Positions 4,207 to 24,149 of a stretch of 64,000 nucleotides of DNA are shown one piece after another. The stretch covers positions 3,752-67,751 of the forward strand of contig CAZFVB010000002.1 of the NCBI GenBank assembly GCA_964522375.1, in the 5' to 3' direction. Under the pieces are notes generated by a model. The model saw only the letters and a list, made by a program, of their open reading frames with translations, was not told the origin of the DNA and ran no database searches. Source of the DNA: an uncultured Chloroflexota bacterium (lineage in GTDB: Bacteria; Chloroflexota; UBA11872). Position 1 is the first letter of the stretch, and the number at the start of each line of letters is the position of its first letter. The position numbers and the translations under genes were made by a program.

Positions 4207-5323
4207 CAAGCCGATATCCAAGCGAGCCGGCATATATGTCTAGAAGTTGATCAACGGACCTCCGCCACGTCATCGCGGCTACCCGACGACGGGCCCCCGC
4301 AGCTAGGGCCTCCCACCGCGCATCGTCAGTCAGCAGTTCCCGGACCGCCCGCAGAAGTTCGCTCGCATTGTCAGGGGCAACAAGAAGGCCATTCATATTG
4401 TGTACAACCGGTTCTTCTGCACCGCAGTCACGAGTACTTACTACGGGAGTTCCACAAGCATTCGCTTCAAGCAACACCAAACCGAACCCTTCAAAGTCGC
4501 TTTTCCACGACCGATACGGCATTACGACCAAACGGGCCCTGTGGTACCACTCGGCAAGTTCTTGCTGGCTAACCACACCTGTGAAAGTGACCCGGCCCTG
4601 TAGATCAAGCGCGTTAATCCGTGCCTGCAACCGTTGGACATACGGAGACGAAGAATTGTAGGGCCCGACAATCACATAACGATCAGCGACACCTTCTGAC
4701 CTAAGCGTCGCAAACGCCTCCAACATTACGTCGTAGCCTTTGCGTGGCTTCGGCTCTCCAACAGACACGATTAATCTTGGCTCGCGTACGGGAGGATTGG
4801 ATTGGGCAAAATCATCAGCTCTTACCGCAAGCGGAACCACAGAAGCCTGCAGCACTCCTGTATCCGCCTCGATACGTTCTCTCGTGTATCGACTGATGGC
4901 CGGAAGACCTCGAGCTCGCCGTAGCGCCCAGCGAAGAGCCATCCCTTCAATACGGGGACGGCCTGACGGAAGTGCATAAGTCCCGACCAGCGAAACAAAA
5001 TACGGACGCTGACCGGAAGCTGCGGCAACAACGGGAGCAAAGGGCTCGATCATGCAATGAACTACATCTACTCCCCGAAGCGCTCGGACAAGAGGTGCAA
5101 ATGTCCGAATGAACACTCGCACGGGATGGCGACTCCCATACTGGAACGACGGAATACTCAAGTGATCAGAGTGAGAACGTAGTTTGGGGATCGCAAGCCG
5201 ATCCCGTGGACTCACCAAACGAACATCCACCCCTGAGGAAATTAGCTCATCAGCAATTTCACCAGCGTACCGACCCCACCCGGTAGTGGGATCGAGTACA
5301 TCACTGACCAGTGCTAACTTCAT
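4199..5323 (-). CDS. Glycosyltransferase family 4
   Basis: Begins MKLALVSDV...; carries FEGFGLVLLEANACGTPVV (E-x7-E); 374 aa. Confidence 0.85.
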   Translation of the reverse strand: MKLALVSDVLDPTTGWGRYAGEIADELISSGVDVRLVSPRDRLAIPKLRSHSDHLSIPSFQYGSRHPVRVFIRTFAPLVRALRGVDVVHCMIEPFAPVVAAASGQRPYFVSLVGTYALPSGRPRIEGMALRWALRRARGLPAISRYTRERIEADTGVLQASVVPLAVRADDFAQSNPPVREPRLIVSVGEPKPRKGYDVMLEAFATLRSEGVADRYVIVGPYNSSSPYVQRLQARINALDLQGRVTFTGVVSQQELAEWYHRARLVVMPYRSWKSDFEGFGLVLLEANACGTPVVSTRDCGAEEPVVHNMNGLLVAPDNASELLRAVRELLTDDARWEALAAGARRRVAAMTWRRSVDQLLDIYAGSLGYRLDE

Positions 5324-7890: not shown

Positions 7891-9098
7891 GAGACCAATT
7901 GATCCGGGCTTAAGAAAATCACGATACTTTCGGCCCGCTTTGTCCAAGTCATATCTTCAACTTCCGCGCGCGCAACTTGCGCCAACGCACGGGCGAGCAC
8001 ATGATCATTTAACAGGCGGGTTACAGCGTCAGCGAGCGCTTCAGGCTCGTCGGGAGTAACAAGAAGCGCATTTTCTCCGTCCCGCAAGATCTCGCGAAGC
8101 GAAGGTAAATTGCTAGCCACGATCGGCCGTTGGGCCGCCATATACTCAAAAAGTTTGAGCGGCGAAGTGTAACTGCGAGCAATTTCTTCACGGGCACTGA
8201 ATGGAATCACCGCAACGTCAGCCGCAAGAAGATATTTGCGAGCGAGCGAAGGTGAGAGATGGCCTATTACATGAACATTGTTATGGCCAGACGCAGCCGA
8301 ACGAATGCGCTCAAGATCTGGTGATACACCACCAACGATATACCAGTGCACATTCTGATCCATGTGATCGACAGCCTGCACCAAGACATCCACCCCCTTC
8401 CAAGGATATAGATGTCCGATATAGCAGGCTATAGGCGCCGCTTCAGGCAAGTCCAAATCTTGGCGCGACATCACCTGACCATCTGGGTCAAACGCTGCCA
8501 CATCAACCGCATCGGCAGCTACCAGGACTCGGGAGGGATCAAATCCAGCATCCAAATACCACTGCCGAAGCCCTGCGGTAATGGTCACTACGCCGTCCAT
8601 GCGACGTACAGCCCACCGGTGCAATGCTGACGAAAATTTGGATCGAGGCACCGTGTGAGCCTCAAACGCAAACTTGGCCTCACGCCTCGTAATAAGTCTG
8701 AGCACCGTGAGCGGAAGGAGGTCGCGACTAATCACAATGTCACCTCGCCATCGCTCAGCCATAAATGCAGCAGAAATAGTAAAAGTCCAAAGCTGCAAGA
8801 AGTGAGCCGCCAGTCGTATTGGCGCCACATTTAACAACGGCCAATCGATAGTCACTCGTTTAATCGCGTCAATCGTCGGAAGCCCGACTAATCTGAAACT
8901 TCTGGCCACATTGGCATAGTCGAACGGATCACCGACCTTTCGCATAGCAACCGTGTTCGCTCTCCGGGCATAGGCAAGCGTGACTTGCGCACCGTTACTA
9001 GCAAACGCTGCCGCCATATGCATGATCTGCATAGGATGGGCTCGTTCGCTCGGAATACGTGCATTGGCGATCATCACAATCCGCAAGGGGTGACTCAT
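7887..9098 (-). CDS. Glycosyltransferase family 4
   Basis: GT-B architecture with a C-terminal PFSAREEIARSYTSPLKLFEYMAAQRPIVAS motif (EX7E-like); 403 aa. Confidence 0.8.
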   Translation of the reverse strand: MSHPLRIVMIANARIPSERAHPMQIMHMAAAFASNGAQVTLAYARRANTVAMRKVGDPFDYANVARSFRLVGLPTIDAIKRVTIDWPLLNVAPIRLAAHFLQLWTFTISAAFMAERWRGDIVISRDLLPLTVLRLITRREAKFAFEAHTVPRSKFSSALHRWAVRRMDGVVTITAGLRQWYLDAGFDPSRVLVAADAVDVAAFDPDGQVMSRQDLDLPEAAPIACYIGHLYPWKGVDVLVQAVDHMDQNVHWYIVGGVSPDLERIRSAASGHNNVHVIGHLSPSLARKYLLAADVAVIPFSAREEIARSYTSPLKLFEYMAAQRPIVASNLPSLREILRDGENALLVTPDEPEALADAVTRLLNDHVLARALAQVARAEVEDMTWTKRAESIVIFLSPDQLVS

Positions 9099-9101
9099 GA
9101 A

Positions 9102-10907
9102 TTAAATCCGGTAGACAAGAGCAATCCTTGCTCCGGATTCGATATGACCAAAGCGAATGCGACTCGATCGACGCGTCCATCGCACGTGGGTCTTAACTTC
9201 CAGTCCTTTGGCCTTGACCGGTAATCGATACTGCACATCATGAAGCCGGCCTGAAGCCTCGAGTTCATCGCGAACCAGCACGGATGTCTCCTCAACACGA
9301 TAAGTCCGACGAATCCCAACATTCGAATGGACAGTTCCATCCATATCGGCAATCCCAGACATAATGACCAAGGCATCACCATCAACATGTACAGTGCTTT
9401 TCGTCGCGTGACTTGACGAACTACGACGATGCGATCGAAACATCGGCAGGGAAAACTTTCGCCAAATCAATCCTGCGGCATGCTGCCATCGACCCGCCCG
9501 CGCATGCGATCTAGCAATGTGTAACACGAACCGATTTTCACGACCGCGACTACGAACTGAACTAGCGACGATTGATGGCCCGGACCGTCGGACTGACCAA
9601 GACGCTTCTGGCTCATCGGGTTCCGACTCAAACTGGATCATGTTTCGCCAATCGTCATCCTTGTTACCAACATAAACCAAGCCCCCACCGCCAACACGAC
9701 CGCCCACAAGACGGTCAGCGGAGCGCTTGTCAGTTCGAACAATTGCACACGCCGTTCGTGAACCTATCCGGGCGACACCAGCATCAGCTGCATACATCGG
9801 GCCAGAGGGATCAATATCCGTGGCATCCACATTTCGTTCATCAAGCTGCGCAGCAGCATACGCACGAGCAAGCCAAGCCAAATCAGCCGTATGAAAAACC
9901 CGACAGACAAAACTAGCGGACCCCGAAGTAGCTTCCAGGAATCCTGATGGCGTTACAGCTGCAATGCTCTGAGCCGCCACTCGACAGGCCAATGGAATCA
10001 TCGACTTTCTTCCATCGGTTGCAAGCACATAAGCATCGTACGCAGACGAACCAGCTTCAGTATCGGCGTCCCAAAACCACCGTTTCCCTTCCAAGCCCAG
10101 CGGCTTAAGACCGTCGGGGCGAAGCACCGTACACAAAAAATCAGCACCAGTTCGCAAAGCATCCTCAAATTCAGCCTCGGCACCAAAAAGACGAAGCGCA
10201 TAACGAGAAAAGCCTACGCATCGACTGTGGTAATACACGGTTAGATCGGAAACACCCACACCTTCACCAAGGGTTTTAGCGTCTTGGACATACCGAAACG
10301 AGCCATCGGGTCGCATCTCGGCAAAGGAACGATCAATCGCCTGTTTGACCGGTAGGCGCCACGCGGTCTCATCCAAAGCCACGGATGCCGCTGCTAAACC
10401 CATCGCTCCCCACAAGCGCTGATTAGTAACCGGCTTCGCGACAACGTTATGGATCAAGTAAGTCTCACAACACAGTCGAACCGATTCCTCGATGGCCTGA
10501 CGTTCTAAGAGATCCAGGGTGTCTCCTGGATGCATTAGCAACGTAGCCAACGCATCGACACATTCACCCGCATCAATAATGTTCGTGGAGTTGTTTCGAT
10601 AGTCATGGAGGCCTGGGAAAAAGACCCAAGCACCATCCGCCGCAGAATCTGGGGCTAGACGAGACACTATCCCTCGAGCCGTCTGACGAGCCCTCGACAG
10701 GTAGCGATCCTCACCCGTGTGCCGATGAAGAGCACAGTCGATAACGATGGATCGGGAAGATTTACCCGTGTGATCAACGCCGTGCTCCGGACAGCGCATA
10801 TATCCGTAGTCATTACGCAGCCGATTGAATAGGTCCGAAGCGGCCGATAACGCCTCCGCCGCATCCGGTGTTAGTGCCGAAACAGCGGAAGCACCGATCG
10901 GCATCAC
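9102..10907 (-). CDS. 601-aa soluble protein of unknown function; possibly a heparinase II/III-like or alginate-lyase-like (alpha/alpha-toroid plus beta-sandwich) polysaccharide-modifying enzyme
   Basis: No TM segments or signal peptide are apparent. Size and context (between an acetyltransferase and GT4s) match heparinase II/III-family proteins common in EPS loci. No catalytic motif could be verified by eye. Confidence 0.35.
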   Translation of the reverse strand: MMPIGASAVSALTPDAAEALSAASDLFNRLRNDYGYMRCPEHGVDHTGKSSRSIVIDCALHRHTGEDRYLSRARQTARGIVSRLAPDSAADGAWVFFPGLHDYRNNSTNIIDAGECVDALATLLMHPGDTLDLLERQAIEESVRLCCETYLIHNVVAKPVTNQRLWGAMGLAAASVALDETAWRLPVKQAIDRSFAEMRPDGSFRYVQDAKTLGEGVGVSDLTVYYHSRCVGFSRYALRLFGAEAEFEDALRTGADFLCTVLRPDGLKPLGLEGKRWFWDADTEAGSSAYDAYVLATDGRKSMIPLACRVAAQSIAAVTPSGFLEATSGSASFVCRVFHTADLAWLARAYAAAQLDERNVDATDIDPSGPMYAADAGVARIGSRTACAIVRTDKRSADRLVGGRVGGGGLVYVGNKDDDWRNMIQFESEPDEPEASWSVRRSGPSIVASSVRSRGRENRFVLHIARSHARAGRWQHAAGLIWRKFSLPMFRSHRRSSSSHATKSTVHVDGDALVIMSGIADMDGTVHSNVGIRRTYRVEETSVLVRDELEASGRLHDVQYRLPVKAKGLEVKTHVRWTRRSSRIRFGHIESGARIALVYRI

Positions 10908-11513
10908 CTAAATGCGCTCGCCAATCACGCGTGCTGGAACTCCACCTACGATGCTGTAAGGAGCGATATCTTCCGTCACCACTGCCCGGACTGCTACGAC
11001 AGCTCCGTCACCAATCGTTACGCCAGGAAGCACAACGACCTCGCTGTAGATCATCACGTCGTCACCAATGACGACCGGACTCTCCTCGATAGGCGCCTGC
11101 AAGATCGGGACATCACGACGACTGGTGTCATGCCGGTGTGAATAAATCGTGGATTCGCGTCCAATATGCGAGTTTTTACCAATCGTAATTCCACCAGTAC
11201 AGTCCAGCCGGACTCCAGATAACACCTCTGTTCCAGAGCCTATTTCAAGTGCCACATCAGGCTGATAATCCGACTCGGCGCCAACCCGCACGTCACGTTT
11301 GATATGCACCCCAGCACCCATAGTGATTTTCAGACCACTGGGGTAGTAAAAACGACTATCGATCTTGACATCGGACCCAACCTCAACACCAGAAGCACCA
11401 CGAAGGAGCGCCGCCCTGACAATCCAAATTATCTGCTGATAGCGTCGGAACACCCGAAAGTCGGGAAAGTGACCGACGAACCGTGCGAGCTGACGCGCAA
11501 CATCTGGTCTCAT
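10908..11513 (-). CDS. Hexapeptide-repeat (left-handed beta-helix) sugar O-acetyltransferase, WcaF/NeuD-like
   Basis: Repeated [LIV]-G-x-x-x-x hexads: IGKNSHIGRESTIY, VVIGDDVMIYSEVVVLPGVTIGDGAVVAVRAVV; 201 aa. Confidence 0.8.
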   Translation of the reverse strand: MRPDVARQLARFVGHFPDFRVFRRYQQIIWIVRAALLRGASGVEVGSDVKIDSRFYYPSGLKITMGAGVHIKRDVRVGAESDYQPDVALEIGSGTEVLSGVRLDCTGGITIGKNSHIGRESTIYSHRHDTSRRDVPILQAPIEESPVVIGDDVMIYSEVVVLPGVTIGDGAVVAVRAVVTEDIAPYSIVGGVPARVIGERI

Positions 11514-12649
11514 AACTCAGACCGTCTTTCCGCCACCGAAGGAAAATCAGGACGGTCTCCACGTTTGACCGAATCAAAAACTTCCACCAATTTTCCGACC
11601 AGACCGTCAGCCCCATGCCCTTCAACTACTGACGTACGTAAACGACTTATAGTCGCATCGAGAAGATTTGGATGTAATCCGAGAACTCCATCGATCCCAC
11701 GAGCTAGTTCAGCAGGCGTATCACCCACCAAGAAGTTGTGCGCAAGTTTGCCCATAACGTTCCGATACGAGCTGTTGTTGGTTATCAACGGAATCCCACA
11801 CGCCATCGCCTCGAGCCCAGTCTTATCCAATGAGGGTTGCATCCGCCAGTTCACAAAAACGCTAAGCGACCGGTAAAACTGAGCCATGCTATCTCCTCGG
11901 ACTGGCCCGACAAACTCGACTGCCTGGTCAACCGCAAGTTCAGTGGCCAAAAGCCGTAAATCCTTAACATATTGGTGATCGGCTGAGTAAAAAGGTTCCC
12001 CTGCAATCCGTAACGAGGCATTCGGGTAACCGTTATTCCGCAACGTCGCGAGAGCCCTGATGCCAGTGTCGAATCCCTTTAGAGGGGTAAGTCGACCAGC
12101 CATGCCAAGCACCGCTCCGGTCCCAGACAATGGCAGACCGGACGGAGCAAACCGTTGAGTGTCGATCCCATGCCCAAGCAAAAATGCCCGATTGCTTGGG
12201 ATCGGATAACTCTCCACGGAAGCCGTCACTGCCGCATTTACAATCCTATTGGCCCATATAAGCGCCGATGACTTGCCATGGCTCGTGTACCAAAGCACCA
12301 AGGGCGCCCTGGCAAGACGAGCAACTGGACCAATCGCCACTGCATAAGCAGGCACCATATGAGCGAACACTGCATTTACCCGGCCACTTGCCAACAAGGA
12401 CACGCACGTCGCGCCAAATTGGTAAACCCGGCGCCCACGAGATCGACTGGATTCACAGCCCATACTATGGACGTACACATTAGGAGGCAGCTCCGTATCT
12501 ACGACTCGGCCGGCAAGCACATGAACAGAGTCCACTCGCTTGGCTAACTCACCCGTCCAGTTGTGCGCGACGGCCAAATTTACACTTGAGGAATTGAGTT
12601 CTTGCGTGACAAACAGGATCCGAAGACCCTGGCCGGGTCCATTAGTCAT
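11510..12649 (-). CDS. Glycosyltransferase family 4
   Basis: LRILFVTQE start; C-terminal GLEAMACGIPLI motif; 4-nt overlap with the downstream gene. Confidence 0.8.
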   Translation of the reverse strand: MTNGPGQGLRILFVTQELNSSSVNLAVAHNWTGELAKRVDSVHVLAGRVVDTELPPNVYVHSMGCESSRSRGRRVYQFGATCVSLLASGRVNAVFAHMVPAYAVAIGPVARLARAPLVLWYTSHGKSSALIWANRIVNAAVTASVESYPIPSNRAFLLGHGIDTQRFAPSGLPLSGTGAVLGMAGRLTPLKGFDTGIRALATLRNNGYPNASLRIAGEPFYSADHQYVKDLRLLATELAVDQAVEFVGPVRGDSMAQFYRSLSVFVNWRMQPSLDKTGLEAMACGIPLITNNSSYRNVMGKLAHNFLVGDTPAELARGIDGVLGLHPNLLDATISRLRTSVVEGHGADGLVGKLVEVFDSVKRGDRPDFPSVAERRSEL

Positions 12650-13769
12650 CTACTGACTTCAGTGCCAGTTGCCGATATGCAGCTGCATAGGCGTCCAAAA
12701 CTACCGACTTTTCAAAATGCACTGTCGATGCAGCCGCTGCAACACCGATAGCGCTCAGAACATCTGAGTTCCCCAGCACCTCAAGCACGAGCGATGCTCC
12801 GGCGTCCTGGTCCCATGGTAGTAACCATCCATTCTCGCCATGTTCAATAGTTTCAGGCATGACACCGACCGGCGTCGCAAACACAGCTGTCCCACACGAC
12901 ATCGCTTCAAGACATACACGGGGCCCACCTTCGCTCAAAGAGGGGCAAACCAGAGCATTCAGACCTCTATAGATCTCAGCCAGTTGTTGGGTGGTTTCGA
13001 GCCAGCCCATGAACGTGACTTTATTGAGGACTCCGACGCGTGCCAACTCGACTTGAAACGATCCACGTTCAGGTCCTTCACCCACGACGACAAACCTAGC
13101 CGAGGGCCATCTGGCTGCCACAGATTCAAACACTCGAGCCACATACCGTAAATTTTTGTTGGCCACCAACCGGCCCACAAACCCCAAGGCGTATTCCTTG
13201 CTCGTGCTACCAGGATGAAAAACTGATCGATCGATATATGCCGACGGGAGTACAAGTATTCGACTCGTGGGAATGCCCCAACGACGCAATAGGGTTGGAA
13301 CCTCCGAGCGATTTACAACACGAACCGCAACCGCAGCTCGCGCTACACGGGTCAAATACACGCGATAAATGATTTTCTCGATAGCTTCCCACCACTGGGC
13401 TCGTCGAGGATGCCCGGGCACATGGTGGATTTCGCTCACGTACGGCGTTCCATACTTCCGCGACAGGAACGAAGCAGCCCGTCCGTTTGAAAATATGCCG
13501 TAATCATGACTCACGATCAGATCGTGGCCATGCGCGTCCATAAGTTCCGCTCCGCGTTTACGTAACCAAGACGTCTGTCGCAACCGAGACACTGGCGACG
13601 ATTCAACAGAAACACCAATGTGGGGATTCGTCCTCGAGTTACTACCGACATTTGGAGTTAGGACATCTATTCGGTCAAATTCAGTCGCCAACCCTTCTAG
13701 GGTTGTGGCAAAAGGACCCGACCGACCGATCACAACATCACGATCACCGCTGAGCATAAGCAACTTCAC
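12642..13769 (-). CDS. Glycosyltransferase family 4
   Basis: MKLLMLSGD start; EGGPRVCLEAMSCGTAVFAT motif; overlaps its neighbours by 4-8 nt. Confidence 0.8.
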   Translation of the reverse strand: MKLLMLSGDRDVVIGRSGPFATTLEGLATEFDRIDVLTPNVGSNSRTNPHIGVSVESSPVSRLRQTSWLRKRGAELMDAHGHDLIVSHDYGIFSNGRAASFLSRKYGTPYVSEIHHVPGHPRRAQWWEAIEKIIYRVYLTRVARAAVAVRVVNRSEVPTLLRRWGIPTSRILVLPSAYIDRSVFHPGSTSKEYALGFVGRLVANKNLRYVARVFESVAARWPSARFVVVGEGPERGSFQVELARVGVLNKVTFMGWLETTQQLAEIYRGLNALVCPSLSEGGPRVCLEAMSCGTAVFATPVGVMPETIEHGENGWLLPWDQDAGASLVLEVLGNSDVLSAIGVAAAASTVHFEKSVVLDAYAAAYRQLALKSVDD

Positions 13770-14929
13770 GCTTTTGGATGCCCGTTACATCGAGTCACAT
13801 TGAGCAAGATTTGCATGGTCTCATCGACCAATCGATCCCATGCAAAATGCGAGAGGTTCGTAGAAGCTATCCCGCTTAACCGCTCGCCAAGCGCCGGGTC
13901 ATTCAACACCCGATTTACCGCGGCAACAAATGATTCCGAGTCCCCAAAGGGCACTAGAAGAGCATTTTCTTCATTCGTGAGAATCTCTCGGTTTCCACCA
14001 ATATCCGTGGTCACGATCGGTGTCCCTATAGTCCGAGTCTCGATAAGCGTGTGAGACAGACCCTCATACGCCGTATTCAGCACGAACACATCAGCCGCTC
14101 GAAGATACATAGGCACGTCTTCATGAGCTACACGACCTACAAAATGAACCCGGTCTATAACACCCAGATCTCGTGCGCACCGTTCAAGAAAATTTTGCTC
14201 GGGTCCGTCACCAACAACCACCAGAGTCGCACTCTTCGCAAATGCTGGAACCATGTCAATGAGATCATCCACGCGTTTCCATGCATAAAGACGTGCAACC
14301 GTACAGACCACCGGTCCATTCAAACCCAACTCTCGTTTAGCCTCGTCGCGCGTGTGCTCAACCAAAGGGGTTTCGGTTAACGCATTCTGAACAACTCGAA
14401 TCTTTGATTCACTGATGCCCCAGCCTTTTACGAGCTGCCCTACATATGAACTCGGAACGATAACTGTACTCGCCAATCGACTATAGGCTCGCTGAACAGC
14501 CCGAAACGCCCGCACTCTAAGCGGATGACGAGCCTCCTGAAAGGCTTCAATTCCATCACGTGTAAGTTCACGACGAATCGAAGACTCCCAAGCCCAATCA
14601 CCAACGATCTTAAGCACACGAGGACGTCCAGCCAACAATGCAGCGAGGGTGGAGGGAAGCTCAATCCCGTTGATATACACCACATCGGACCTACGCGCTG
14701 CATGCCACGTGTACCAAAACACTAGCAAGTAGCGCCAGATCACTGGTGTGGCCCACGACACCCGCTTTATGGGAAAAGGGGTTTGAACAAGTCCCTCTGG
14801 ATCATCAGGACACACTACGGCCCGGACATCGTGCCCACGGTCGTAAAGAGTTTGAGCCAGGTGATAAATGTGCGTAGCAGGTCCACCAACCGTCGGAGGA
14901 AATATGTTCGAAACAAATGTGACACGCAT
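13766..14929 (-). CDS. Glycosyltransferase family 4
   Basis: MRVTFVSNIFPPTVGGPATHIYHLAQTL (canonical GT4 N-terminus) plus EGLSHTLIETRTIGTPIV. Confidence 0.85.
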   Translation of the reverse strand: MRVTFVSNIFPPTVGGPATHIYHLAQTLYDRGHDVRAVVCPDDPEGLVQTPFPIKRVSWATPVIWRYLLVFWYTWHAARRSDVVYINGIELPSTLAALLAGRPRVLKIVGDWAWESSIRRELTRDGIEAFQEARHPLRVRAFRAVQRAYSRLASTVIVPSSYVGQLVKGWGISESKIRVVQNALTETPLVEHTRDEAKRELGLNGPVVCTVARLYAWKRVDDLIDMVPAFAKSATLVVVGDGPEQNFLERCARDLGVIDRVHFVGRVAHEDVPMYLRAADVFVLNTAYEGLSHTLIETRTIGTPIVTTDIGGNREILTNEENALLVPFGDSESFVAAVNRVLNDPALGERLSGIASTNLSHFAWDRLVDETMQILLNVTRCNGHPKA

Positions 14930-15027: not shown

Positions 15028-16131
15028 CTACTCGGTCGAAGATGCCTTAGAAACATCATGAGAGCCATTTTGAAGGACTGGTAACGAACTCTCCCCCGTA
15101 ACCACCCCACGAGCACTAGAAAACAGACTCCATGCGGCGCCATCATCCTGCCAAACAGCGTCGCAGCCACGACACAACTTGTAGTCCTCTAATTCCCCGT
15201 CCACATGCGCCTGTCGGATCGCCTGATATTCCTTACTGTTCCATATGTCCCGAATCGATTGGGTCGACAAGTCCCCCATAATCTGATCCTCAGCGAAGTC
15301 AGCGCAGCATGACGGAACCTTGCCATCCCAATATATGGCCATCGACTTCCACAACCAGTTGCACGGAAAGTAATTAGGCCCATGCGGACGTGCCGTGTAG
15401 AAATCCGAAGTCTCCATCTGTCCGGCCCACCCATGAGCCCAAAACGTATCCCACTCGTCTACAGGGAGCCCGCTGAACCGATCAAGAAAGTGTTGGGGAA
15501 TAGTAGGTAGCGCACCCTTGGCATAATCCGAATTCCAGAGTTGAATCACCTGCATCACCATGTAGGGACGCTTACCAGATCTAGTCTTCATCGCCCGTAA
15601 TAATTGCAACACCCGCTCCAGGGTGTGATCAAACTTGGCTCCCTTACGCATTTCCTCATATTCACCAGGCTCACCAGAATCAAAACTGACAGTGAGCTTG
15701 CTCGGGCGAGCATCCAATAATTGATCGATTTTCTCATCACGTAGTAGTGTGGCGTTTGTGTTTATGTGCGCAGCGATGCCGGCTTCCTCACTCACCCGAA
15801 TCATCTCGTAGATGTCCTTGTGCATCATCGATTCACCGCGAAAGAACAAATTAGCCTCCGTTGTGAAATCCTTGGCCTCATTAATGATCTTTCGAAAAAG
15901 GTCCATTTCCATAAAACCGTTGTGCTCATTCGCACCCACACTTTGGGGACACATCGGACAACGAAGATTGCAAAAGCTCGTGGGCTCAATGTGAATCTTA
16001 AGAGGCCCATAAGGAACTTCCGTGGACCCTTTCATCCAGTGATAAACAAATCGACCAAGAGCCGGTCGCAAGATTGCACGGTGACGCCGATACTTGAGGA
16101 GCAAGTCTTTCGCTTGGCCAACCCTGTTCAC
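15028..16131 (-). CDS. Radical SAM enzyme with C-terminal SPASM/twitch auxiliary Fe-S domain
   Basis: CNLRCPMC (CX3CX2C) at residues ~53-60. C-terminal Cys cluster CNWLW...SCCADF...CRGC matches SPASM. 367 aa. Its start overlaps the stop of the upstream Trm112-like ORF by 4 nt. Confidence 0.8.
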   Translation of the reverse strand: MNRVGQAKDLLLKYRRHRAILRPALGRFVYHWMKGSTEVPYGPLKIHIEPTSFCNLRCPMCPQSVGANEHNGFMEMDLFRKIINEAKDFTTEANLFFRGESMMHKDIYEMIRVSEEAGIAAHINTNATLLRDEKIDQLLDARPSKLTVSFDSGEPGEYEEMRKGAKFDHTLERVLQLLRAMKTRSGKRPYMVMQVIQLWNSDYAKGALPTIPQHFLDRFSGLPVDEWDTFWAHGWAGQMETSDFYTARPHGPNYFPCNWLWKSMAIYWDGKVPSCCADFAEDQIMGDLSTQSIRDIWNSKEYQAIRQAHVDGELEDYKLCRGCDAVWQDDGAAWSLFSSARGVVTGESSLPVLQNGSHDVSKASSTE

Positions 16132-16396: not shown

Positions 16397-18643
16397 CTAG
16401 AGCATGAGATGAAGAGTGTCAAAGCCAATAAGCAGAGACGCAAAGCCCACGACGGATCCAACTTGCATTACTCGCGCCATCCGTGAACGGAGAAACATTC
16501 TCTTGGTTAAGCCAATCCAGGCCCCAAGCGCAAGGAATTGCAGGCCTAACAGCATGACGGCTACCCAAACCAACACTACCGGATAAGCGAGAAAACTTTC
16601 GGTTAATCCCATCGACCAAAAATCAAGGCCAAGACCATTTTCTGGACGTTGAGGTATAGCATCCACACCAAATCGGGACCACGGCGTACGGCTTAAAGCA
16701 TCGGCCAAGAAATCGGTCCGGTCAGGTGCAAGAAGATTCACAGCGTCAGCTCGCAACAACCACGCATGGCCAAGTAGTGGTGAAAACTGATAGGAGTAGA
16801 GAACAGCTGCATAATCGCCCTCAGGTTGGATGGATGACCACGGCTGGTAGTCCGAACCGCCATAAATCGCACCACTCAGAGGCACTGCGCCAGCCACTTG
16901 CTGTTGGAATACGTCTAGATAGCCCGTGAAATCCTTTGACACACCCATAAGTTGCGGTACGACACTGATTGCTACCGTTAGAGCAAGCACAACTTTTAAC
17001 AACCGCCTACGCGAACAACGAAACATGTGATCGATGAGTGGTGCGCCCAAAACAATAAGGAAAGGTAGCGTGGGGACTAGATAGCGCGGTCCCCAAGCAT
17101 TGCCGCCGTACCACACCTGCTTCCGGCTATATAGCAGCACATAAACGATTGGAATAGCGACAAAGAAGAATGATCGCCAGCCATGACGACGGATAAACCA
17201 CGGTATAACAGGAACAGTTAAAAGAAGGATTGGGTTGTACCACAACACACCTTTCCCCCAACTCGTGAGTAATCCCCCCAAACCAAGACCAAGAGGTAGC
17301 TCAAGCCATCCGCGCTGAAGACCACCGATGAGTTCCTGCTCATAGAGCAAGCGAAAATCAAAAAACACCCCGGCGACCAGAAGTACCGTAGGCACAACCA
17401 AAAGGAATGGCGCCAGCAGAATCATCTGCAGCTGCAGTGACGGTCGAAAACCAGCAAACCACCCATTTCCCCGACTTTCTCGGACGAGAATCGCCAACAA
17501 GAAAACTGGGATTGCTATAACAGAAACATATTTGGTTAGTACCGCTGCGAATATGGCTACTCCAGCCAAGAGCACATACCGGCGACGATTGGTGGAATCG
17601 AAGACAAGAATCAGCCACGCCGCAGGCAGCAGTAATGTCGTGACTAGAGGCTCAGCAAAATCATATTTGGCGTAAGGCCATGCCATAGTTCCCAAACCGT
17701 AGATCAGGGCCATCACAATCGACACCTGCTCCGAATACCCCAAACGTCTAACTATTCGAAAGACCAAAACCACTGCGAAAGCCGTGATTAGAGCATTGGC
17801 TGCAGGCACCCATAACCGACGAAAAAACTCCTGATTCTGTCGCTCGGACCAGACACGCCCGACTCCAGGCCCATCTATCCATCGACCTCCAGATATCCGA
17901 AGAGCTAGGCCGTCGACGTAAAGGTTTCCGGTCGGCCGTAAATATGTAATCTCAGCGCTCGCGAGCTCCAAAGGCGGATCGAACTCCCATGTCGCCGCGT
18001 AATAGTAGGCCCGAGCATTACCGATATGTCTGGCCACTGGTTTGGGTTGGTCATGTTGAATTACTGCACGAACATCACCACGATCGTATGCCCACTCTGC
18101 TGTCTCAACTCCGACACGAATGGGGTAAGTCGTAACTTGTCCCGAAGATTGAATTAGCGAAACTCGAGCAATTTCAGTGCCCTGAGCAAACTCTGCGCTA
18201 AGCCCACTGTGCGAAACGAGAGTCATTCGATCATAGGTGCCCGGCTTAATTGAAAGATCCAACCCTCCTTTAACTCCGTGACCTCCCGTCCCACCAATTG
18301 GATGAAAATTGACAAGCAACACATCGTGTTCTGCAAGAGGAATACGGTCCCGTTGTGGTGCCGCACGAGCGATAGGTTCGGCAAGGGCCACGAAAGGCAG
18401 CAAGACCGTAGGAAGACCTACGCCCCACCTGGCAAAGTTCTTGTTTTGATCCCGTAGGTACGCATGGCCTGGATCAACCATCACACTCTTGGCCATCTCG
18501 AAGGCAAAAGTCCCGTCAGCGCTATATCCAGCCCCATTACGCCCCATGCCTAGCGTCATTGCATAAATAGAGAATATGAACAAAAAAAGAAGTAGCGCAG
18601 GCCGACAGTTCGCCCGACCGATAAGTGAGCGCATCCCAGTCAT
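16397..18643 (-). CDS. Large polytopic membrane protein, possibly a GT-C-fold / YfhO-like extracytoplasmic glycosyltransferase
   Basis: 748 aa. One N-terminal TM anchor, then a ~270-residue soluble domain, then more than 10 hydrophobic helices and a C-terminal TM. No catalytic motif was confidently recognised. Confidence 0.45.
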   Translation of the reverse strand: MTGMRSLIGRANCRPALLLFLFIFSIYAMTLGMGRNGAGYSADGTFAFEMAKSVMVDPGHAYLRDQNKNFARWGVGLPTVLLPFVALAEPIARAAPQRDRIPLAEHDVLLVNFHPIGGTGGHGVKGGLDLSIKPGTYDRMTLVSHSGLSAEFAQGTEIARVSLIQSSGQVTTYPIRVGVETAEWAYDRGDVRAVIQHDQPKPVARHIGNARAYYYAATWEFDPPLELASAEITYLRPTGNLYVDGLALRISGGRWIDGPGVGRVWSERQNQEFFRRLWVPAANALITAFAVVLVFRIVRRLGYSEQVSIVMALIYGLGTMAWPYAKYDFAEPLVTTLLLPAAWLILVFDSTNRRRYVLLAGVAIFAAVLTKYVSVIAIPVFLLAILVRESRGNGWFAGFRPSLQLQMILLAPFLLVVPTVLLVAGVFFDFRLLYEQELIGGLQRGWLELPLGLGLGGLLTSWGKGVLWYNPILLLTVPVIPWFIRRHGWRSFFFVAIPIVYVLLYSRKQVWYGGNAWGPRYLVPTLPFLIVLGAPLIDHMFRCSRRRLLKVVLALTVAISVVPQLMGVSKDFTGYLDVFQQQVAGAVPLSGAIYGGSDYQPWSSIQPEGDYAAVLYSYQFSPLLGHAWLLRADAVNLLAPDRTDFLADALSRTPWSRFGVDAIPQRPENGLGLDFWSMGLTESFLAYPVVLVWVAVMLLGLQFLALGAWIGLTKRMFLRSRMARVMQVGSVVGFASLLIGFDTLHLML

Positions 18644-20245: not shown

Positions 20246-21603
20246 TGCGGCTCCAAAAAAGGATTGAGCTCCCGTCCGTCTAACGGAGCATGACGCCCTT
20301 CATTCACTCGTAGTTGGAACGTTCGAGGAGCAGCCGTTACGACTTGCAGCAGAGCCCGTACACGGGATATCGAGAGAGCTATCGACGTCCCGTCCAGCTG
20401 AAAGATTCCGACTCGTGCATCATTCCAAGCGTACTTCGTGGCTGCGGCCATATGACGAAAAGTCCACAGGACCGGGGCATTCTTGGTAAGCATACGAAGT
20501 TTTCCAAACTCAACGTTTCGGGTAAAACCTGGCGACCATTCTTTGCTAAATGCGGCATGTTCATGACGCACAACCGAGGCTGGCTCGTAGCAAAAGATCC
20601 ATCCGCGCCTACGAGCCCGCCATGCAAGATCCGCGTCCTCGTAATACATAAAAATCCCATCGTCTAGATAATCCAGCTCGTCCAACATGTCCCGGCGATA
20701 CAGCACAGCTGCACCTTTTGGAGCAAAAATTTCACGCCGGTCGTCGAACGCCGAACTATCCCAAGCTGACCACGGGACTCCTTGCAGAACACGAGTACCT
20801 CGATCACGCATCGAACCATCAGGTAAAGGCACAATCCCAGCACTCTCGATCGCCGGCCGCGCCATCGTCGAAACAACATCGTCCTTGAACGGAATCTCAT
20901 TTGTTGTCCGCCCTGGATTCAACTCAATGCGTCCAAGCTCACAACTTCCAACAAGAACTTTGACAGGCACCCCGTGACGACCATCCCCCGCAGCCAATTC
21001 CAACTTCATAAGAGTGGAACCTTCAACCACCGGCAGTGAGAAATCCACACAACTCATTGACCAACGAAACGCACGTCCACCACCGTCCTGTTCCACACCA
21101 TACGCGCCATTCGTAACATCGGCCCGACCGACATCTGATCTAAGACCATATATCCGAACCCCAAGTCTTCGAGCATCCGAACCAGAAGGAACAAACTCGG
21201 GAACCTCAAGGCGGATCGGCAACCGGTCGTGAAGGTGAAGAATTTTTGGCGCAACACCTCCGACTGATGAATCTTCAGTTAATCGGTCAACAAGAGGCTT
21301 TAACCAGTCAGGGTCAACAATGGTGTCCGGATTTAATAGGCCAACATATGGCTCAGTAGCCATTCGTAATGCCTGATTGTTGCCTCGAGAGAATCCGACA
21401 TTTTCACCATTCGCAATTACTTCAACCGACGGGAATTCCTGACGTACTCGATCAACAGAATCGTCTGTCGAAGCGTTGTCTACGACTGTTACACGAAGAT
21501 CTGGATATTTGGTTTCGGCAAGACTTTTCAAACACCCTTCAATTCGACCAGCGCCGTTATAGTTCAGAACGACAACACGAACAGGGGGAAGTTTTTGAGT
21601 CAT
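20242..21603 (-). CDS. Glycosyltransferase family 2 (GT-A) with C-terminal extension
   Basis: VRVVVLNYNGAGRIEGCLKSL...VVDNASTDDS (DxD-containing GT2 N-terminus); 453 aa. Confidence 0.85.
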   Translation of the reverse strand: MTQKLPPVRVVVLNYNGAGRIEGCLKSLAETKYPDLRVTVVDNASTDDSVDRVRQEFPSVEVIANGENVGFSRGNNQALRMATEPYVGLLNPDTIVDPDWLKPLVDRLTEDSSVGGVAPKILHLHDRLPIRLEVPEFVPSGSDARRLGVRIYGLRSDVGRADVTNGAYGVEQDGGGRAFRWSMSCVDFSLPVVEGSTLMKLELAAGDGRHGVPVKVLVGSCELGRIELNPGRTTNEIPFKDDVVSTMARPAIESAGIVPLPDGSMRDRGTRVLQGVPWSAWDSSAFDDRREIFAPKGAAVLYRRDMLDELDYLDDGIFMYYEDADLAWRARRRGWIFCYEPASVVRHEHAAFSKEWSPGFTRNVEFGKLRMLTKNAPVLWTFRHMAAATKYAWNDARVGIFQLDGTSIALSISRVRALLQVVTAAPRTFQLRVNEGRHAPLDGRELNPFLEPQ

Positions 21604-23306
21604 TCCACCCGAATAGAACGCACGGCAAGCCCCAGCGGCCGAGTGTCAGAATCAAGACCAATTTCGGCTGGGACGAGCGGATCTTCGACTTCTATTACAA
21701 GCTCATGCGTCTCAGGACTTATAACAGGGTCAAGTGGAATAACGATGTCTTCAAAATCCATCCCGTGTACAGGAACTGTGGCGATATGACGACCGTTTAC
21801 GGTCACCGACGCCCGCGTGGTTCCTCGTCCATGCAACGGACGACACGCGGATAGCACCAATGCCCCTTGGCCAACGTCCTGTCTAACGTAGGCAACAGCG
21901 CGTGGCGCCGTCCAACGAATGTGTGGAGGCCAGTCTTCAGCCGGAAACCAGCCTTCACCGAGCCATTCATCATCCCGAGAACCCATAATCAACTCTTCAG
22001 GTGGCAGAGTCCAAAAAGGACCAGCAGCCTCGGTAATCATGTCGGGCTGTACTATTGGCTCGCCGGCGAGCTGAAGTTCGTCTTCGACAGCGGCCGTCGA
22101 TACCCGCCATCTTGCAGGAATCACCGTCACACCACGTAATCCAACAGCTGCTTTGCCCACGAAAAAAGTCATAGCATTTGGCCAAATGTGAAATGGGCGC
22201 ATCCTGTCGGCCGATGGCCACGCCCCAATCGAAACCATATAGGTTCCAGGGCCAAGCGGGAGTGGGCCAAGTTCACACTCCACTCGAGTTCTACCGGGTT
22301 GGAGATCTGTCGGACCAATGGTTGTCGCTGTCGAAGTTTCGTGAATCAGCAGCCCATCGCTTCGTCGAACAGCAAAGCCAACAACAACGTCCTCGAAATA
22401 ACCGCTGGAATCCAACTCGAGTTCAAGCCTGGAAATATTTCCCGGCAAATAAGCGTAGCGTTCAGAACCCGTGTCCACATCACGAGCAAGCGCCGCTCGA
22501 ATCTGGACTTCACCCGTACCGAGTTCAGTTAATTCATTTCTTGCAACCTGACTCGCGACATGGCCAGAACCGCGCATATGCGCGAGATAATCTTGAATGA
22601 CCTCACGTGGATTCCCCTCAGCACGGACCTTGCCAGCATCAACCCACACGACACGGTCACAAAATCGTCGGACTTGAATTGGATCGTGTGAAACAAACAC
22701 GATTGTTTTTCCGCGCTGCTTGATCTCAGCAAGAGCGTCGTAACACTTAGCGGTGAACCGCGCATCGCCAACAGCAAGAACTTCGTCAATTAAGAGAATG
22801 TCTGGATCCAAGCTGATGGCAATTGCGAATCCCAATCGCATGAACATTCCCGACGAATAGTGGCGAACAGGTGTGTCAATAAATCGCTCAAGTTCAGCAA
22901 ACTCAACAATGTCCTTATAGCGCCGTCGCATTTCGGCCCGCCCAATCCCAAGAAACGAGCCATTAAGGAAGATATTCTCCCGCCCTGTCAGGTCGGGATG
23001 CATCCCAGCACCTAGCTCAAGAAGACCAAAAACCTTTCCATCCAACCTAATTTTCCCTGAGGTCGGGGAAATAGTGCCGGCCAACAGCTTTAGGATTGTG
23101 GTCTTTCCGGACCCGTTCGGCCCAATAATCCCAACCGTTTCGCCTTCTTTCACCGCTAAGTCCACCCGATCGAGGGCCCAAAACTCCTCGTGCTCAATCT
23201 GGCGCCGACCAAGTAGCGCTAACGCCATCCCCTGCCATGTACGAGACGATTCATGCCGAATAGAAAATCTCTTACGTACTTCTTCTAAAACGATTACGTT
23301 CGACAC
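21600..23306 (-). CDS. Wzt/TagH-type polysaccharide-export ABC transporter ATP-binding protein with a C-terminal ~320-aa carbohydrate-binding-like domain
   Basis: Walker A GPNGSGKTT, signature YSSGMFMRLGFA, Walker B LLIDEVLAVGD, H-loop FVSHD; the long C-terminal extension follows. Confidence 0.85.
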   Translation of the reverse strand: MSNVIVLEEVRKRFSIRHESSRTWQGMALALLGRRQIEHEEFWALDRVDLAVKEGETVGIIGPNGSGKTTILKLLAGTISPTSGKIRLDGKVFGLLELGAGMHPDLTGRENIFLNGSFLGIGRAEMRRRYKDIVEFAELERFIDTPVRHYSSGMFMRLGFAIAISLDPDILLIDEVLAVGDARFTAKCYDALAEIKQRGKTIVFVSHDPIQVRRFCDRVVWVDAGKVRAEGNPREVIQDYLAHMRGSGHVASQVARNELTELGTGEVQIRAALARDVDTGSERYAYLPGNISRLELELDSSGYFEDVVVGFAVRRSDGLLIHETSTATTIGPTDLQPGRTRVECELGPLPLGPGTYMVSIGAWPSADRMRPFHIWPNAMTFFVGKAAVGLRGVTVIPARWRVSTAAVEDELQLAGEPIVQPDMITEAAGPFWTLPPEELIMGSRDDEWLGEGWFPAEDWPPHIRWTAPRAVAYVRQDVGQGALVLSACRPLHGRGTTRASVTVNGRHIATVPVHGMDFEDIVIPLDPVISPETHELVIEVEDPLVPAEIGLDSDTRPLGLAVRSIRVE

Positions 23307-24149
23307 CTAGAGTTCTTCCGCAAATCGATTGGATAAGCGCCGGAAGATTGACCATCCCAAACCGAGTAAAACAACCGCACCGACTACGGTGATCAGGGTA
23401 TGGCGAATTGGCAGAAAACCCCACATAAAGGCGTATCGGTAATCCGTAACCAATGTCGCCATTGGGTTAAGAATGAACACCCAGCGATGAACATCCAGGC
23501 CTAAAACCGTGCTGTTCGGAACAATTGACATGGCATAAAAGATCGGAGTCAGGAAGAACCAAGCCAAAAGACCAACTTCTACGATGTGCTCTGTGTCGCG
23601 AAAATAAACATTGATCGCAGCAAGAAGCAACCCAAGTCCCAACACAAACACCAGATGCAACAGCATGATGGCCGGCAAAAACACCATGGCTCCTGTTACA
23701 CCTACCCCAAACGGAATAGCAACCAACCAAAAAACACCGTAAGCCAGAAGGAAGTTCACAAAGCTCGCCAGGATTGCGCTCAAAGGTAGAAGCTCACGAG
23801 GGAAATACACCTTTTTAATTAACTGGGCGTTGGACGTAATGCTTCGCATAGCAGAGGTGAGAGCTTGCTGGGTAAACAGCCATGGAACTAGCGCAGCTAG
23901 TAGAAAAAATGGGTATCGCTCAATAGGATCCGTCTTCGCCAACACCTGAAAAACAAGCGTAAAGACCGCCATCATCAGAAGTGGATTAAGCAATGACCAG
24001 CCGAACCCAAGCACCGAACCTCGATAGCGAACCTTGAGGTCTCGAACCACCAAGTTTCGTAACAGATCACTGTAACTACTCAGTTCGCGAATGGACCTCA
24101 AAAATCTTCGGGCAGCGTAAGCACGCCCTTTAACAGCATTAGCAGCCAT
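23307..24149 (-). CDS. Wzm/TagG-type ABC-2 family permease
   Basis: 280 aa, 6 TM helices, ABC-2 topology; it directly abuts the Wzt start with no gap. Confidence 0.75.
   Translation of the reverse strand: MAANAVKGRAYAARRFLRSIRELSSYSDLLRNLVVRDLKVRYRGSVLGFGWSLLNPLLMMAVFTLVFQVLAKTDPIERYPFFLLAALVPWLFTQQALTSAMRSITSNAQLIKKVYFPRELLPLSAILASFVNFLLAYGVFWLVAIPFGVGVTGAMVFLPAIMLLHLVFVLGLGLLLAAINVYFRDTEHIVEVGLLAWFFLTPIFYAMSIVPNSTVLGLDVHRWVFILNPMATLVTDYRYAFMWGFLPIRHTLITVVGAVVLLGLGWSIFRRLSNRFAEEL

Follow-up and report, generated by a model that had tools for sequence, protein, structure and literature searches.

Most surface glycans are assembled and decorated beyond the membrane by glycosyltransferases (GTs) of the GT-C type, whose recognition of polymeric acceptors is poorly understood. 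The accessory lectin-like domains and carbohydrate-binding modules (CBMs) of these enzymes are known at the C-terminus (ArnT-like enzymes, Emb, AftD and GT136), in a late loop (the MIR domain of protein O-mannosyltransferases, PMTs) and among extra N-terminal helices (Emb). Such CBMs have been described on EmbA-C, AftD and GT136 (PMC7341804, PMC11127046); that at the N-terminus of EmbB lies between two extra transmembrane (TM) helices ahead of the canonical core (PMC7341804), and CBM-bearing GT-Cs decorate O-antigens exported by ATP-binding cassette (ABC) transporters, using polyprenyl-phosphate sugars in the periplasm (PMC11127046). Here we analyze a stretch of 64,000 nucleotides, hereafter the window, from an uncultured Chloroflexota bacterium of lineage UBA11872 (assembly GCA_964522375.1, contig CAZFVB010000002.1, positions 3,752 to 67,751), in which a gene for a 748-residue membrane protein stands next to genes for a Wzm/Wzt polysaccharide exporter and soluble GTs of families GT2 and GT4. 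The protein is not a new kind of enzyme. It represents an uncharacterised family of GT-Cs, restricted to Chloroflexota, whose accessory module has been relocated: a conserved beta-sandwich sits in the catalytic first loop, beside the predicted catalytic Asp.

Fold and family placement of the 748-residue protein

A word-indexed search of 5.8 billion proteins returned 105 homologues of the protein, about 50 of which are near-equal to it in length (741-759 aa) and align at 44-91% identity over ~100% of the sequence. Orthologues at 47-91% identity have the same length and N-terminus. Because so many homologues agree in length at this coverage, the ATG start of the open reading frame (ORF) is supported, and the comparison indicates that ORF 16397-18643 is a genuine gene; the polytopic membrane protein of 748 residues put forward in the original prediction agrees with the ORF, the orthologue lengths and the hydropathy profile. 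The nearest relative, at 91% identity, is from 'Chloroflexi bacterium UBA6622', and Tara Oceans sequences are present in the 90%-identity cluster of the protein. Scanning one genome per GTDB species yielded at least 520 encoded relatives, nearly all of them in metagenome-assembled genomes (MAGs) of Chloroflexota. One relative at 35% identity (locus L046) comes from a contig that was binned into a Sphingomonadaceae MAG, all other matches being Chloroflexota; its neighbours, in the order GT2, GT4, GT-C and radical S-adenosylmethionine (SAM) enzyme, are the same as on a Chloroflexi contig (locus L045), and the assignment probably reflects faulty binning, not a transfer. Some close orthologues bear the automatic NCBI names 'glycosyltransferase family 39 protein', 'phospholipid carrier-dependent glycosyltransferase' or 'ArnT family glycosyltransferase'.

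The AlphaFold2 (AF2) model of the protein has a predicted local distance difference test score (pLDDT) of 90.7 and a predicted template modelling score (pTM) of 0.90, and its polytopic core is superposable on solved GT-C enzymes of the GT-C_A class. Judged by this model, the protein is unambiguously a GT-C-fold enzyme of the GT-C_A type, distantly PMT/ArnT-like. With the whole model as query, Foldseek gave a weak match to Emb (E 4e-4, TM-score 0.18-0.25), and sequence searches of the PDB with the protein (phmmer) or with a 61-sequence profile (hmmsearch) found nothing meaningful, only a designed propeller at E 0.27. Among Pfam families, PMT (PF02366) scored 27.0 bits against a gathering cut-off of 22.7, residues 275-433 aligning with profile positions 81-244 of 245, and PMT_2 (PF13231) matched the same region at 26.0 bits, 0.1 bit short of its cut-off of 26.1. 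When the insert (residues 95-266) was deleted in silico, PMT scored 24.0 bits and PMT_2 26.6 bits, and the match still stopped short of TM1 and loop 1. Because the deletion gave no extension, D43 is equated here with the catalytic Asp of ArnT and PMT by position and conservation rather than by profile alignment. Several members of the family score below the PMT cut-off or are unmatched, and precomputed matches to PF13231 exist on many orthologues at 68-70% identity, as do matches to PF02366 on orthologues. The best NCBIfam match, to NF047440 (LA_3751/LA_3752 putative glycosyltransferase), covered residues 273-563 at 38.1 bits for a cut-off of 200.

The protein is thus about equally distant from all solved GT-C families and, by sequence, at the fringe of the PMT/PMT_2 clan. 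The original prediction had recognised no GT-C signature by eye and had suggested a new family of glycan polymerase, ligase or transferase. To the eye the signature is indeed missing; it emerges from the profile match to PMT and from the fold, which the Foldseek comparison recognised in the core. Likewise, this is a second large GT-like membrane protein in the cluster without a clean characterised family, as had been proposed, and its fold is the known one of GT-C enzymes. No clear match to GT39 or GT83 with standard topology was found, the alignment to PMT being partial and that to PMT_2 marginally below threshold. The candidate explanation that the protein is a divergent paralogue of the YfhO encoded in the same cluster was rejected (BLASTP E 0.37), and no Pfam YfhO match was obtained in the 748-residue protein at E<=1.

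Topology and the beta-sandwich in the first loop

AF2 secondary structure, loop charges and conservation together predict 13 TM helices and a cytoplasmic N-terminus. In the hydropathy profile a single TM segment near the N-terminus is followed by a long stretch without membrane character and, from ~276 onwards, by a helical bundle; an extra hydrophobic segment, absent from the original prediction, appears at 70-92. Loop 1 comprises three helices, namely 42-55, bearing the motif Y-S41-x-D43-G44, 61-73, and an amphipathic helix 76-94; beyond the insert, a short helix (267-276) leads into TM2 (279-300), which is followed by an R296/R299/R300 cluster. Further K/R clusters, NRRR at 352-355, RESRGN...FR at 388-400, RRHGWR at 485-491, FRCSRRR at 541-547 and TKRMFLRSRMAR at 713-724, all fall in predicted cytoplasmic loops. 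In total, 23 of the 71 residues of the inside loops are K or R, as compared to 7 of the 41 in the short outside loops, and K+R is higher inside than outside in 52/52 orthologues.

Helix 76-94 decides on which side of the membrane the insert lies. Its hydrophobic moment, 1.23, is the highest among the long hydrophobic helices (0.06-0.6 for the TM helices), and a membrane crossing at this point would flip all later loops against the positive-inside rule; for these reasons we read it as a juxtamembrane helix, as in the outer leaflet of ArnT-type enzymes, the juxtamembrane helix of ArnT (PDB 5EZM) being what we take to be its counterpart. Were it truly transmembrane, the protein would have 14 TM helices and a cytoplasmic beta-sandwich contacting the GT2/GT4 machinery or Wzt. 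Residues 74-92 do reach the TM threshold used (mean hydropathy 1.62), and the neighbouring cytoplasmic GT2 and GT4 have beta-rich inserts too, to which, however, the GT-C insert has no sequence similarity. This arrangement would also turn all six K/R-rich loops outward in the face of the charge rule kept by every one of the 52 orthologues, and in relatives free of the insert only ~7 uncharged residues part the equivalent helix from TM2, a spacing that presumably resembles that of the juxtamembrane helix in ArnT-like enzymes (PDB 5EZM). Topology work on YfhO, in whose large loop the homologous beta-sandwich is found, reportedly placed that loop outside the cell. A 14-helix protein therefore seems very improbable, and charge bias and homology suggest that the insert (97-262) is extracytoplasmic, between the juxtamembrane helix and TM2.

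Y27 in TM1 is invariant, and D43 is Asp in 60 and Glu in one of the 61 homologues. E331, W511, W517 and R520 are invariant, and K464 is K or R in all 61. The (near-)invariant residues of the core comprise F329 and E331 in loop 2 (motif W322-P-Y-A...F329-x-E331-P), G454, G457, S461, K464, Y469 and P471 in loop 4, and W511, G514 and W517-G518-P519-R520, followed by Y, in loop 5.

TM13 runs to residue 747 of 748, with no soluble domain beyond it, and a second, helical extracytoplasmic region (570-687) is predicted between TM11 and the last two TM helices. Across the homologues, this region grows to ~290-350 residues in longer paralogues of 935-1040 aa (loci L003/L060 and L048-L071; 29-37% identity), which retain the loop-1 insert and carry the extra ~290-350-residue domain in the loop ahead of the last two TM helices. 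These paralogues sit outside the ABC-transporter module, and at least one has as neighbours a PMT_2 gene and the gene for a 964-aa protein without an assigned family. The layout given in the original prediction, that of a TM anchor, a 270-residue soluble domain and a polytopic core, was correct in outline; what had been taken for a single soluble domain is a ~240-residue stretch made up of GT-C loop 1 and a ~170-residue beta-sandwich. The domain order is unusual, as had been pointed out, and is not an inversion, since the accessory domain is spliced into loop 1 after the Asp and the juxtamembrane helices. Nor does a simple 'domain first, core last' scheme fit, given the TM11-TM12 region, and a CBM ahead of the core has a precedent in EmbB (PMC7341804).

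The insert is an all-beta domain of ~170 residues spanning ~97-262, the entry to which is marked by A-P-Q-R-D. It forms a jelly-roll beta-sandwich resembling known CBMs, and the Foldseek search with the whole model also matched CBM16 and CBM32. E183, W184 and H197 are conserved in every member of the query family that has the insert; E183, W184, Y186, D187, R188 and H197 are only suggestive of a glycan-binding motif, and a carbohydrate-binding role would follow by analogy. The insert is missing from relatives P0090-P0099 (24-29% identity, alignment A1; one named 'ArnT family'), which retain the S-x-D-[GE] motif and the K/R-G-x-G...L-P helix, with ~72 residues from motif to TM2; most of them, P0092-P0099 included, bear a 250-300-residue soluble domain beyond the last TM helix, the usual GT-C order. 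The insertion point, between juxtamembrane helix and TM2, was assigned by inspection of motifs, MAFFT having scattered the short loop across the gap.

Among 1.84 billion representative proteins, a profile of the insert gave 1582 matches at E<=1e-3, of which 736 reached E<=1e-10. Placement was classified for the best 145 matches outside the query alignment: the module is C-terminal to the polytopic core in 73 of these and in loop 1 in 11, most of the remaining carriers looking fragmentary. After the core, one copy or 2-4 tandem copies stand ahead of a single last TM helix or, in an alternative form, two copies lie at the extreme C-terminus of ~840-aa proteins. Pfam YfhO was found in 5/10 sampled carriers, one of which combines it with PMT_2; these include 4/7 with the module after the core. 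One carrier cluster is named Blastocatellia 'YfhO family protein'; the Pfam scan of the sampled carriers yielded no model for the TAEWAYDR beta-sandwich itself. The motif AG-x-[DE]-T-A-E-W-A-Y-D-R-P-D-V...H...Y is common to loop-1 and post-core placements, and these matches show the insert to be an accessory module homologous to that of YfhO-type GT-Cs. Since the module follows the core in YfhO-type enzymes, we read it as relocated to loop 1 in the 748-residue protein. A hidden Markov model (HMM) of the insert, run over all six-frame ORFs of the window, matched the GT-C gene only, and the YfhO of the window lacks the TAEWAYDR module. No counterpart of a loop-1 jelly roll without extra helices was found among solved structures or in the literature surveyed. 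The TAEWAYDR sandwich is thus an unnamed and widespread GT-C accessory domain (~1,600 representative proteins) that may constitute a new carbohydrate-binding family.

Gene neighbourhood and proposed function

The GT-C gene sits in a tightly packed, co-directional string of minus-strand genes [Table 1]. Synteny was assessed by tblastn of the cluster proteins against 83 fetched loci. The series Wzm-Wzt-GT2-GT4-[GT-C]-radical SAM was kept in order and strand in 41/41 loci with a GT-C at least 47% identical; about 12 relatives at 31-38% identity are still near GT2, GT4 or radical SAM homologues, and the remaining relatives at 29-37% identity, mostly longer paralogues, are located elsewhere. Wzm/Wzt-GT2-GT4-GT-C-Trm112-like-radical SAM is thus a tightly conserved surface-glycan module of Chloroflexota, found in abundant marine and sponge-associated uncultured bacteria.

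Table 1. Coordinates of the 748-residue protein, its predicted parts and the surrounding genes in the window (residue numbers refer to the 748-residue protein)
Feature	Coordinates	Strand	Basis
Divergent gene for a predicted GT-C-fold glycosyltransferase, 748 aa	16397..18643	minus	ATG-started ORF
Predicted cytoplasmic N-terminus (1-14; R5, R10, R14) and TM1, residues 1-35	18539..18643	minus	Hydropathy; AF2 helix 15-29
Canonical GT-C first extracytoplasmic loop (predicted), residues 36-94	18362..18538	minus	S41-x-D43-G44; three helices
Jelly-roll beta-sandwich insert (CBM-like), residues 95-266	17846..18361	minus	Conserved A-P-Q-R-D, G-x-E-T-A-E-W-A-Y-D-R, H197, W265
Linker helix and TM2-TM11 (GT-C core), residues 267-570	16934..17845	minus	Pfam PMT/PMT_2, NCBIfam, invariant columns
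Helical extracytoplasmic region between TM11 and TM12 (predicted), residues 571-687	16583..16933	minus	AF2 secondary structure
TM12 and TM13, residues 688-748, C-terminus predicted outside	16397..16582	minus	AF2 helices 688-716, 721-747; K/R-rich connecting loop
Wzm	23307-24149	minus	Pfam
Wzt with C-terminal Wzt_C domain	21600-23306	minus	Pfam
Soluble GT2, 453 aa, no TM segment	20242-21603	minus	Pfam
Soluble GT4 with internal insert, 526 aa	18665-20245	minus	Pfam
Trm112-like zinc-ribbon protein, 77 aa	16128-16361	minus	NCBIfam Trm112_arch E 4.6e-6, below cut-off
Radical SAM/SPASM enzyme	15028-16131	minus	Pfam
Three GT4s	11510-14929	minus	
Hexapeptide acyltransferase	10908-11513	minus	
Soluble 601-aa protein, family unassigned	9102-10907	minus	No Pfam/NCBIfam match, no TM
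Further GT4	7887-9098	minus	
YfhO	5320-7947	minus	Pfam YfhO 44.8 bits
Further GT4	4199-5323	minus	
Wzx-like candidate flippase	2743-4233	minus	
Two more glycosyltransferases (one GT4, one Glyco_trans_1_2 type)	550-2786	minus	

The Trm112-like gene and the radical SAM gene overlap, the stop codon of the first lying across the start of the second. Orthologous loci have Pfam Trm112p annotated at the matching position, in agreement with the tblastn synteny. Trm112 proteins are partners of methyltransferases; in orthologous clusters at 39-48% identity a SAM methyltransferase gene, absent from this window, lies just upstream of the GT-C gene. No neighbour is linked to the GT-C family more persistently than the radical SAM/SPASM enzyme, which is retained even at 31-38% identity; in NCBIfam it comes closest to maturases of metalloenzymes or peptides, with every score far under the respective cut-off. 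Both the GT4 of 526 aa and the GT2 have a ~140-residue beta-rich stretch inside the catalytic domain. As copies of the GT-C insert these stretches were rejected (BLASTP E ~1 or worse, no HMM match). Four consecutive conserved proteins, Wzt, GT2, GT4 and GT-C, would each carry a putative glycan-binding sandwich. The soluble 601-aa protein, rejected as a third GT-C for want of a TM segment and of a family match, is kept in the cluster down to 43% identity, and in one locus at 39% identity (L004) a PMT_2-type membrane protein stands at the corresponding position. A YfhO-type gene does belong to the same string, as originally predicted at 5320-7890; its longest ORF starts further upstream, with TTG at 7947, and only the last ~72 residues of the product match Pfam YfhO, with no NCBIfam match. 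ORFs between 38 and 54 kb were also scanned (ten of those of at least 180 aa) and are of housekeeping type. Base skews track the coding strand in the window, GC skew being about -0.10 to -0.18 in the minus-strand gene blocks (1-24 kb and 38-56 kb) and -0.02 to -0.07 in the plus-strand block at 24-38 kb.

We lean, with modest confidence, towards the protein being an extracytoplasmic transferase that moves sugar from polyprenyl phosphate onto the glycan exported by Wzm/Wzt, with the beta-sandwich holding the polymer. The neighbouring cytoplasmic GT2 and GT4 would build the polysaccharide and the adjacent Wzm/Wzt would export it; the GT-C, acting at the outer face of the cytoplasmic membrane, would then transfer a sugar from a donor linked to polyprenyl phosphate to the exported chain, decorating or extending it after export. 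For catalysis, the acid/base is predicted to be Asp43, a short way beyond TM1. E331, K464 and R520 of the outside loops would hold the sugar-phosphate, while the loop-1 beta-sandwich would bind the polymer that serves as acceptor and bring it to the active site. A donor of the lipid-phosphate-sugar type and a glycan acceptor are what we infer by analogy, the conserved K464 and the invariant R520 in outside loops lending indirect support to the former. The decoration model mirrors the glycosylation of ABC-exported O-antigens by CBM-bearing GT-Cs, and also the multi-component transmembrane glycosylation systems with YfhO-type GT-Cs that reportedly operate in Gram-positive bacteria.

Several observations weigh against such a transferase. 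The sequence link to PMT/PMT_2 is marginal and leaves the N-terminal catalytic loop uncovered even after deletion of the insert, and the membrane side of the insert is read from charge bias and homology. No membrane-anchored polyprenyl-phosphate-sugar synthase (GtrB/CsbB-type GT2) and no initiating phosphoglycosyltransferase was found in the 64-kb window, of which the 38-54 kb part was covered by ten ORFs of at least 180 aa; the GT2 of the cluster is soluble. Loci at 48% identity lack the downstream YfhO/Wzx part, so that the Wzx-like flippase and YfhO fall outside the minimal module and two of the three parts of a classical three-component system are therefore unlinked to the GT-C. The minimal module likewise contains no other candidate for the ligation step, which leaves room for the GT-C as a glycan ligase or en-bloc transferase, the role played elsewhere by WaaL, PglL and oligosaccharyltransferases. 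In that case, a polymer linked to undecaprenyl diphosphate and exported by Wzm/Wzt would be passed to a lipid, a cell-wall polymer or an S-layer protein, and the beta-sandwich would bind the polymer as donor. The minimal module, with its terminus-reading Wzt_C exporter, polymerising GTs, Trm112-like methyltransferase partner and radical SAM enzyme and without a lipid-monosaccharide synthase or flippase, would suit this role; the methyltransferase of orthologous clusters suggests chain termination, and the GT-C fold is almost as near to PglB/AglB as to ArnT/Pmt1. We nevertheless hold a ligase to be fairly unlikely. The sole sequence affinities of the protein are to PMT/PMT_2-type enzymes, whose characterised members use polyprenyl-monophosphate monosaccharide donors, and its beta-sandwich is typical of YfhO-type enzymes, of which those studied are said to add single sugars to teichoic acids. 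Moreover, the WWDxG/WWD motif is absent from the translated sequence, as is a C-terminal domain of the STT3 type, and neither Pfam STT3 nor Pfam Wzy_C, which marks WaaL/PglL-type ligases, matched the protein; its resemblance in fold to the oligosaccharyltransferases is confined to the GT-C core. A related and unlikely possibility is that a PMT-like GT-C has turned polymer ligase or extender by means of the TAEWAYDR sandwich, to perform the last step of an ABC-dependent glycan pathway in a phylum without WaaL-type logic. If this were true, the imported sandwich would read the GT2/GT4-made chain as modified by the radical SAM/Trm112 pair, and the enzyme would define a new CAZy GT family along with a new CBM family.

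A PMT-type protein O-glycosyltransferase, acting with a polyprenyl-phosphate sugar on Ser/Thr-rich regions of secreted or S-layer proteins and with the beta-sandwich in the role of the MIR domain of eukaryotic PMTs, appears quite improbable. PMT is the best Pfam family, NCBI names some orthologues after glycosyltransferase family 39, and PMTs have a lectin-like luminal domain inserted in a loop. Streptococcal GT-Cs, moreover, are reported to glycosylate Ser/Thr-rich regions of membrane proteins (PMC12041528). As noted above, however, the PMT match is marginal and partial, at 27 bits. The loop-1 motif is D43-G44, with G in 55/61 homologues, in place of the canonical Asp-Glu dipeptide of PMT (GT39), and no MIR domain was found in the protein (Pfam, E<=1); the insert is in loop 1 and not in the loop after TM7, which here (429-472) is short and helical and has no beta-trefoil. 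That the gene is so strictly linked to an ABC exporter of polysaccharide and to polymerising GTs favours a glycan over a protein as acceptor, and the insert is shared with YfhO-type polymer-modifying enzymes.

Comparison with known GT-C systems

The 748-residue protein extends the known range of GT-C architectures and does not overturn current understanding of these enzymes. Enzymes of the ArnT/PMT_2 type (CAZy GT83; PDB 5EZM, 5F15) likewise have 13 TM helices and a cytoplasmic N-terminus, a catalytic acidic residue (predicted for the present protein) that follows directly on TM1, a loop 1 with juxtamembrane helices, and conserved basic residues in outside loops, and PMT_2 is the borderline Pfam match. 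Identity over the structural alignment with ArnT is only 14%, and the present protein differs from it by the 170-residue beta-sandwich in loop 1 and by a helical TM11-TM12 region in place of the soluble periplasmic domain beyond the last TM helix. Their contexts differ as well, ArnT serving lipid A modification and the 748-residue protein lying in an ABC-exported glycan cluster of a monoderm-type phylum. Protein O-mannosyltransferases (Pfam PMT, GT39; Pmt1/Pmt2 6P25/6P2R, Pmt4) supply the best Pfam family and similarly have a lectin-like domain in an outside loop. That domain is a beta-trefoil after TM7, as opposed to a jelly roll in loop 1, the D-E of these enzymes is replaced by D-G, MIR is missing, and the match is limited to profile positions 81-244.

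In the Emb arabinosyltransferases (GT53; EmbB 6X0O, EmbA/B 7BVC) a periplasm-facing jelly-roll CBM is also N-terminal to most of the core (PMC7341804), and the enzyme works on an exported polymer, its donor being a polyprenyl-phosphate sugar, as proposed here for the 748-residue protein. Unlike Emb, the latter has no extra TM helices and no C-terminal CBM, and its module lies downstream of the catalytic Asp in loop 1. GT136 (ORF12 of Citrobacter youngae O1), from the three-component periplasmic systems, couples a GT-C with a CBM that binds the unmodified backbone of an ABC-exported O-polysaccharide (PMC11127046). We liken the two by architecture alone: the CBM of ORF12 is a separate extracytoplasmic domain, and its donor synthase and flippase are co-encoded, which is not the case for the 748-residue protein.

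The YfhO family (PF09586; teichoic-acid glycosylation) shares with the 748-residue protein the AG-x-[DE]-TAEWAYDR beta-sandwich, and a YfhO paralogue is encoded in the same cluster; both would be extracytoplasmic polymer-modifying GT-Cs, if the function proposed for the 748-residue protein is correct. In hundreds of YfhO-type enzymes the module follows the core, frequently as 2-4 tandem copies, whereas here a single copy resides in loop 1. The two arrangements amount to a natural domain-shuffling experiment, and a comparison of loop-1 with post-core placement could reveal how GT-C enzymes position their acceptor-binding modules with respect to the active site.

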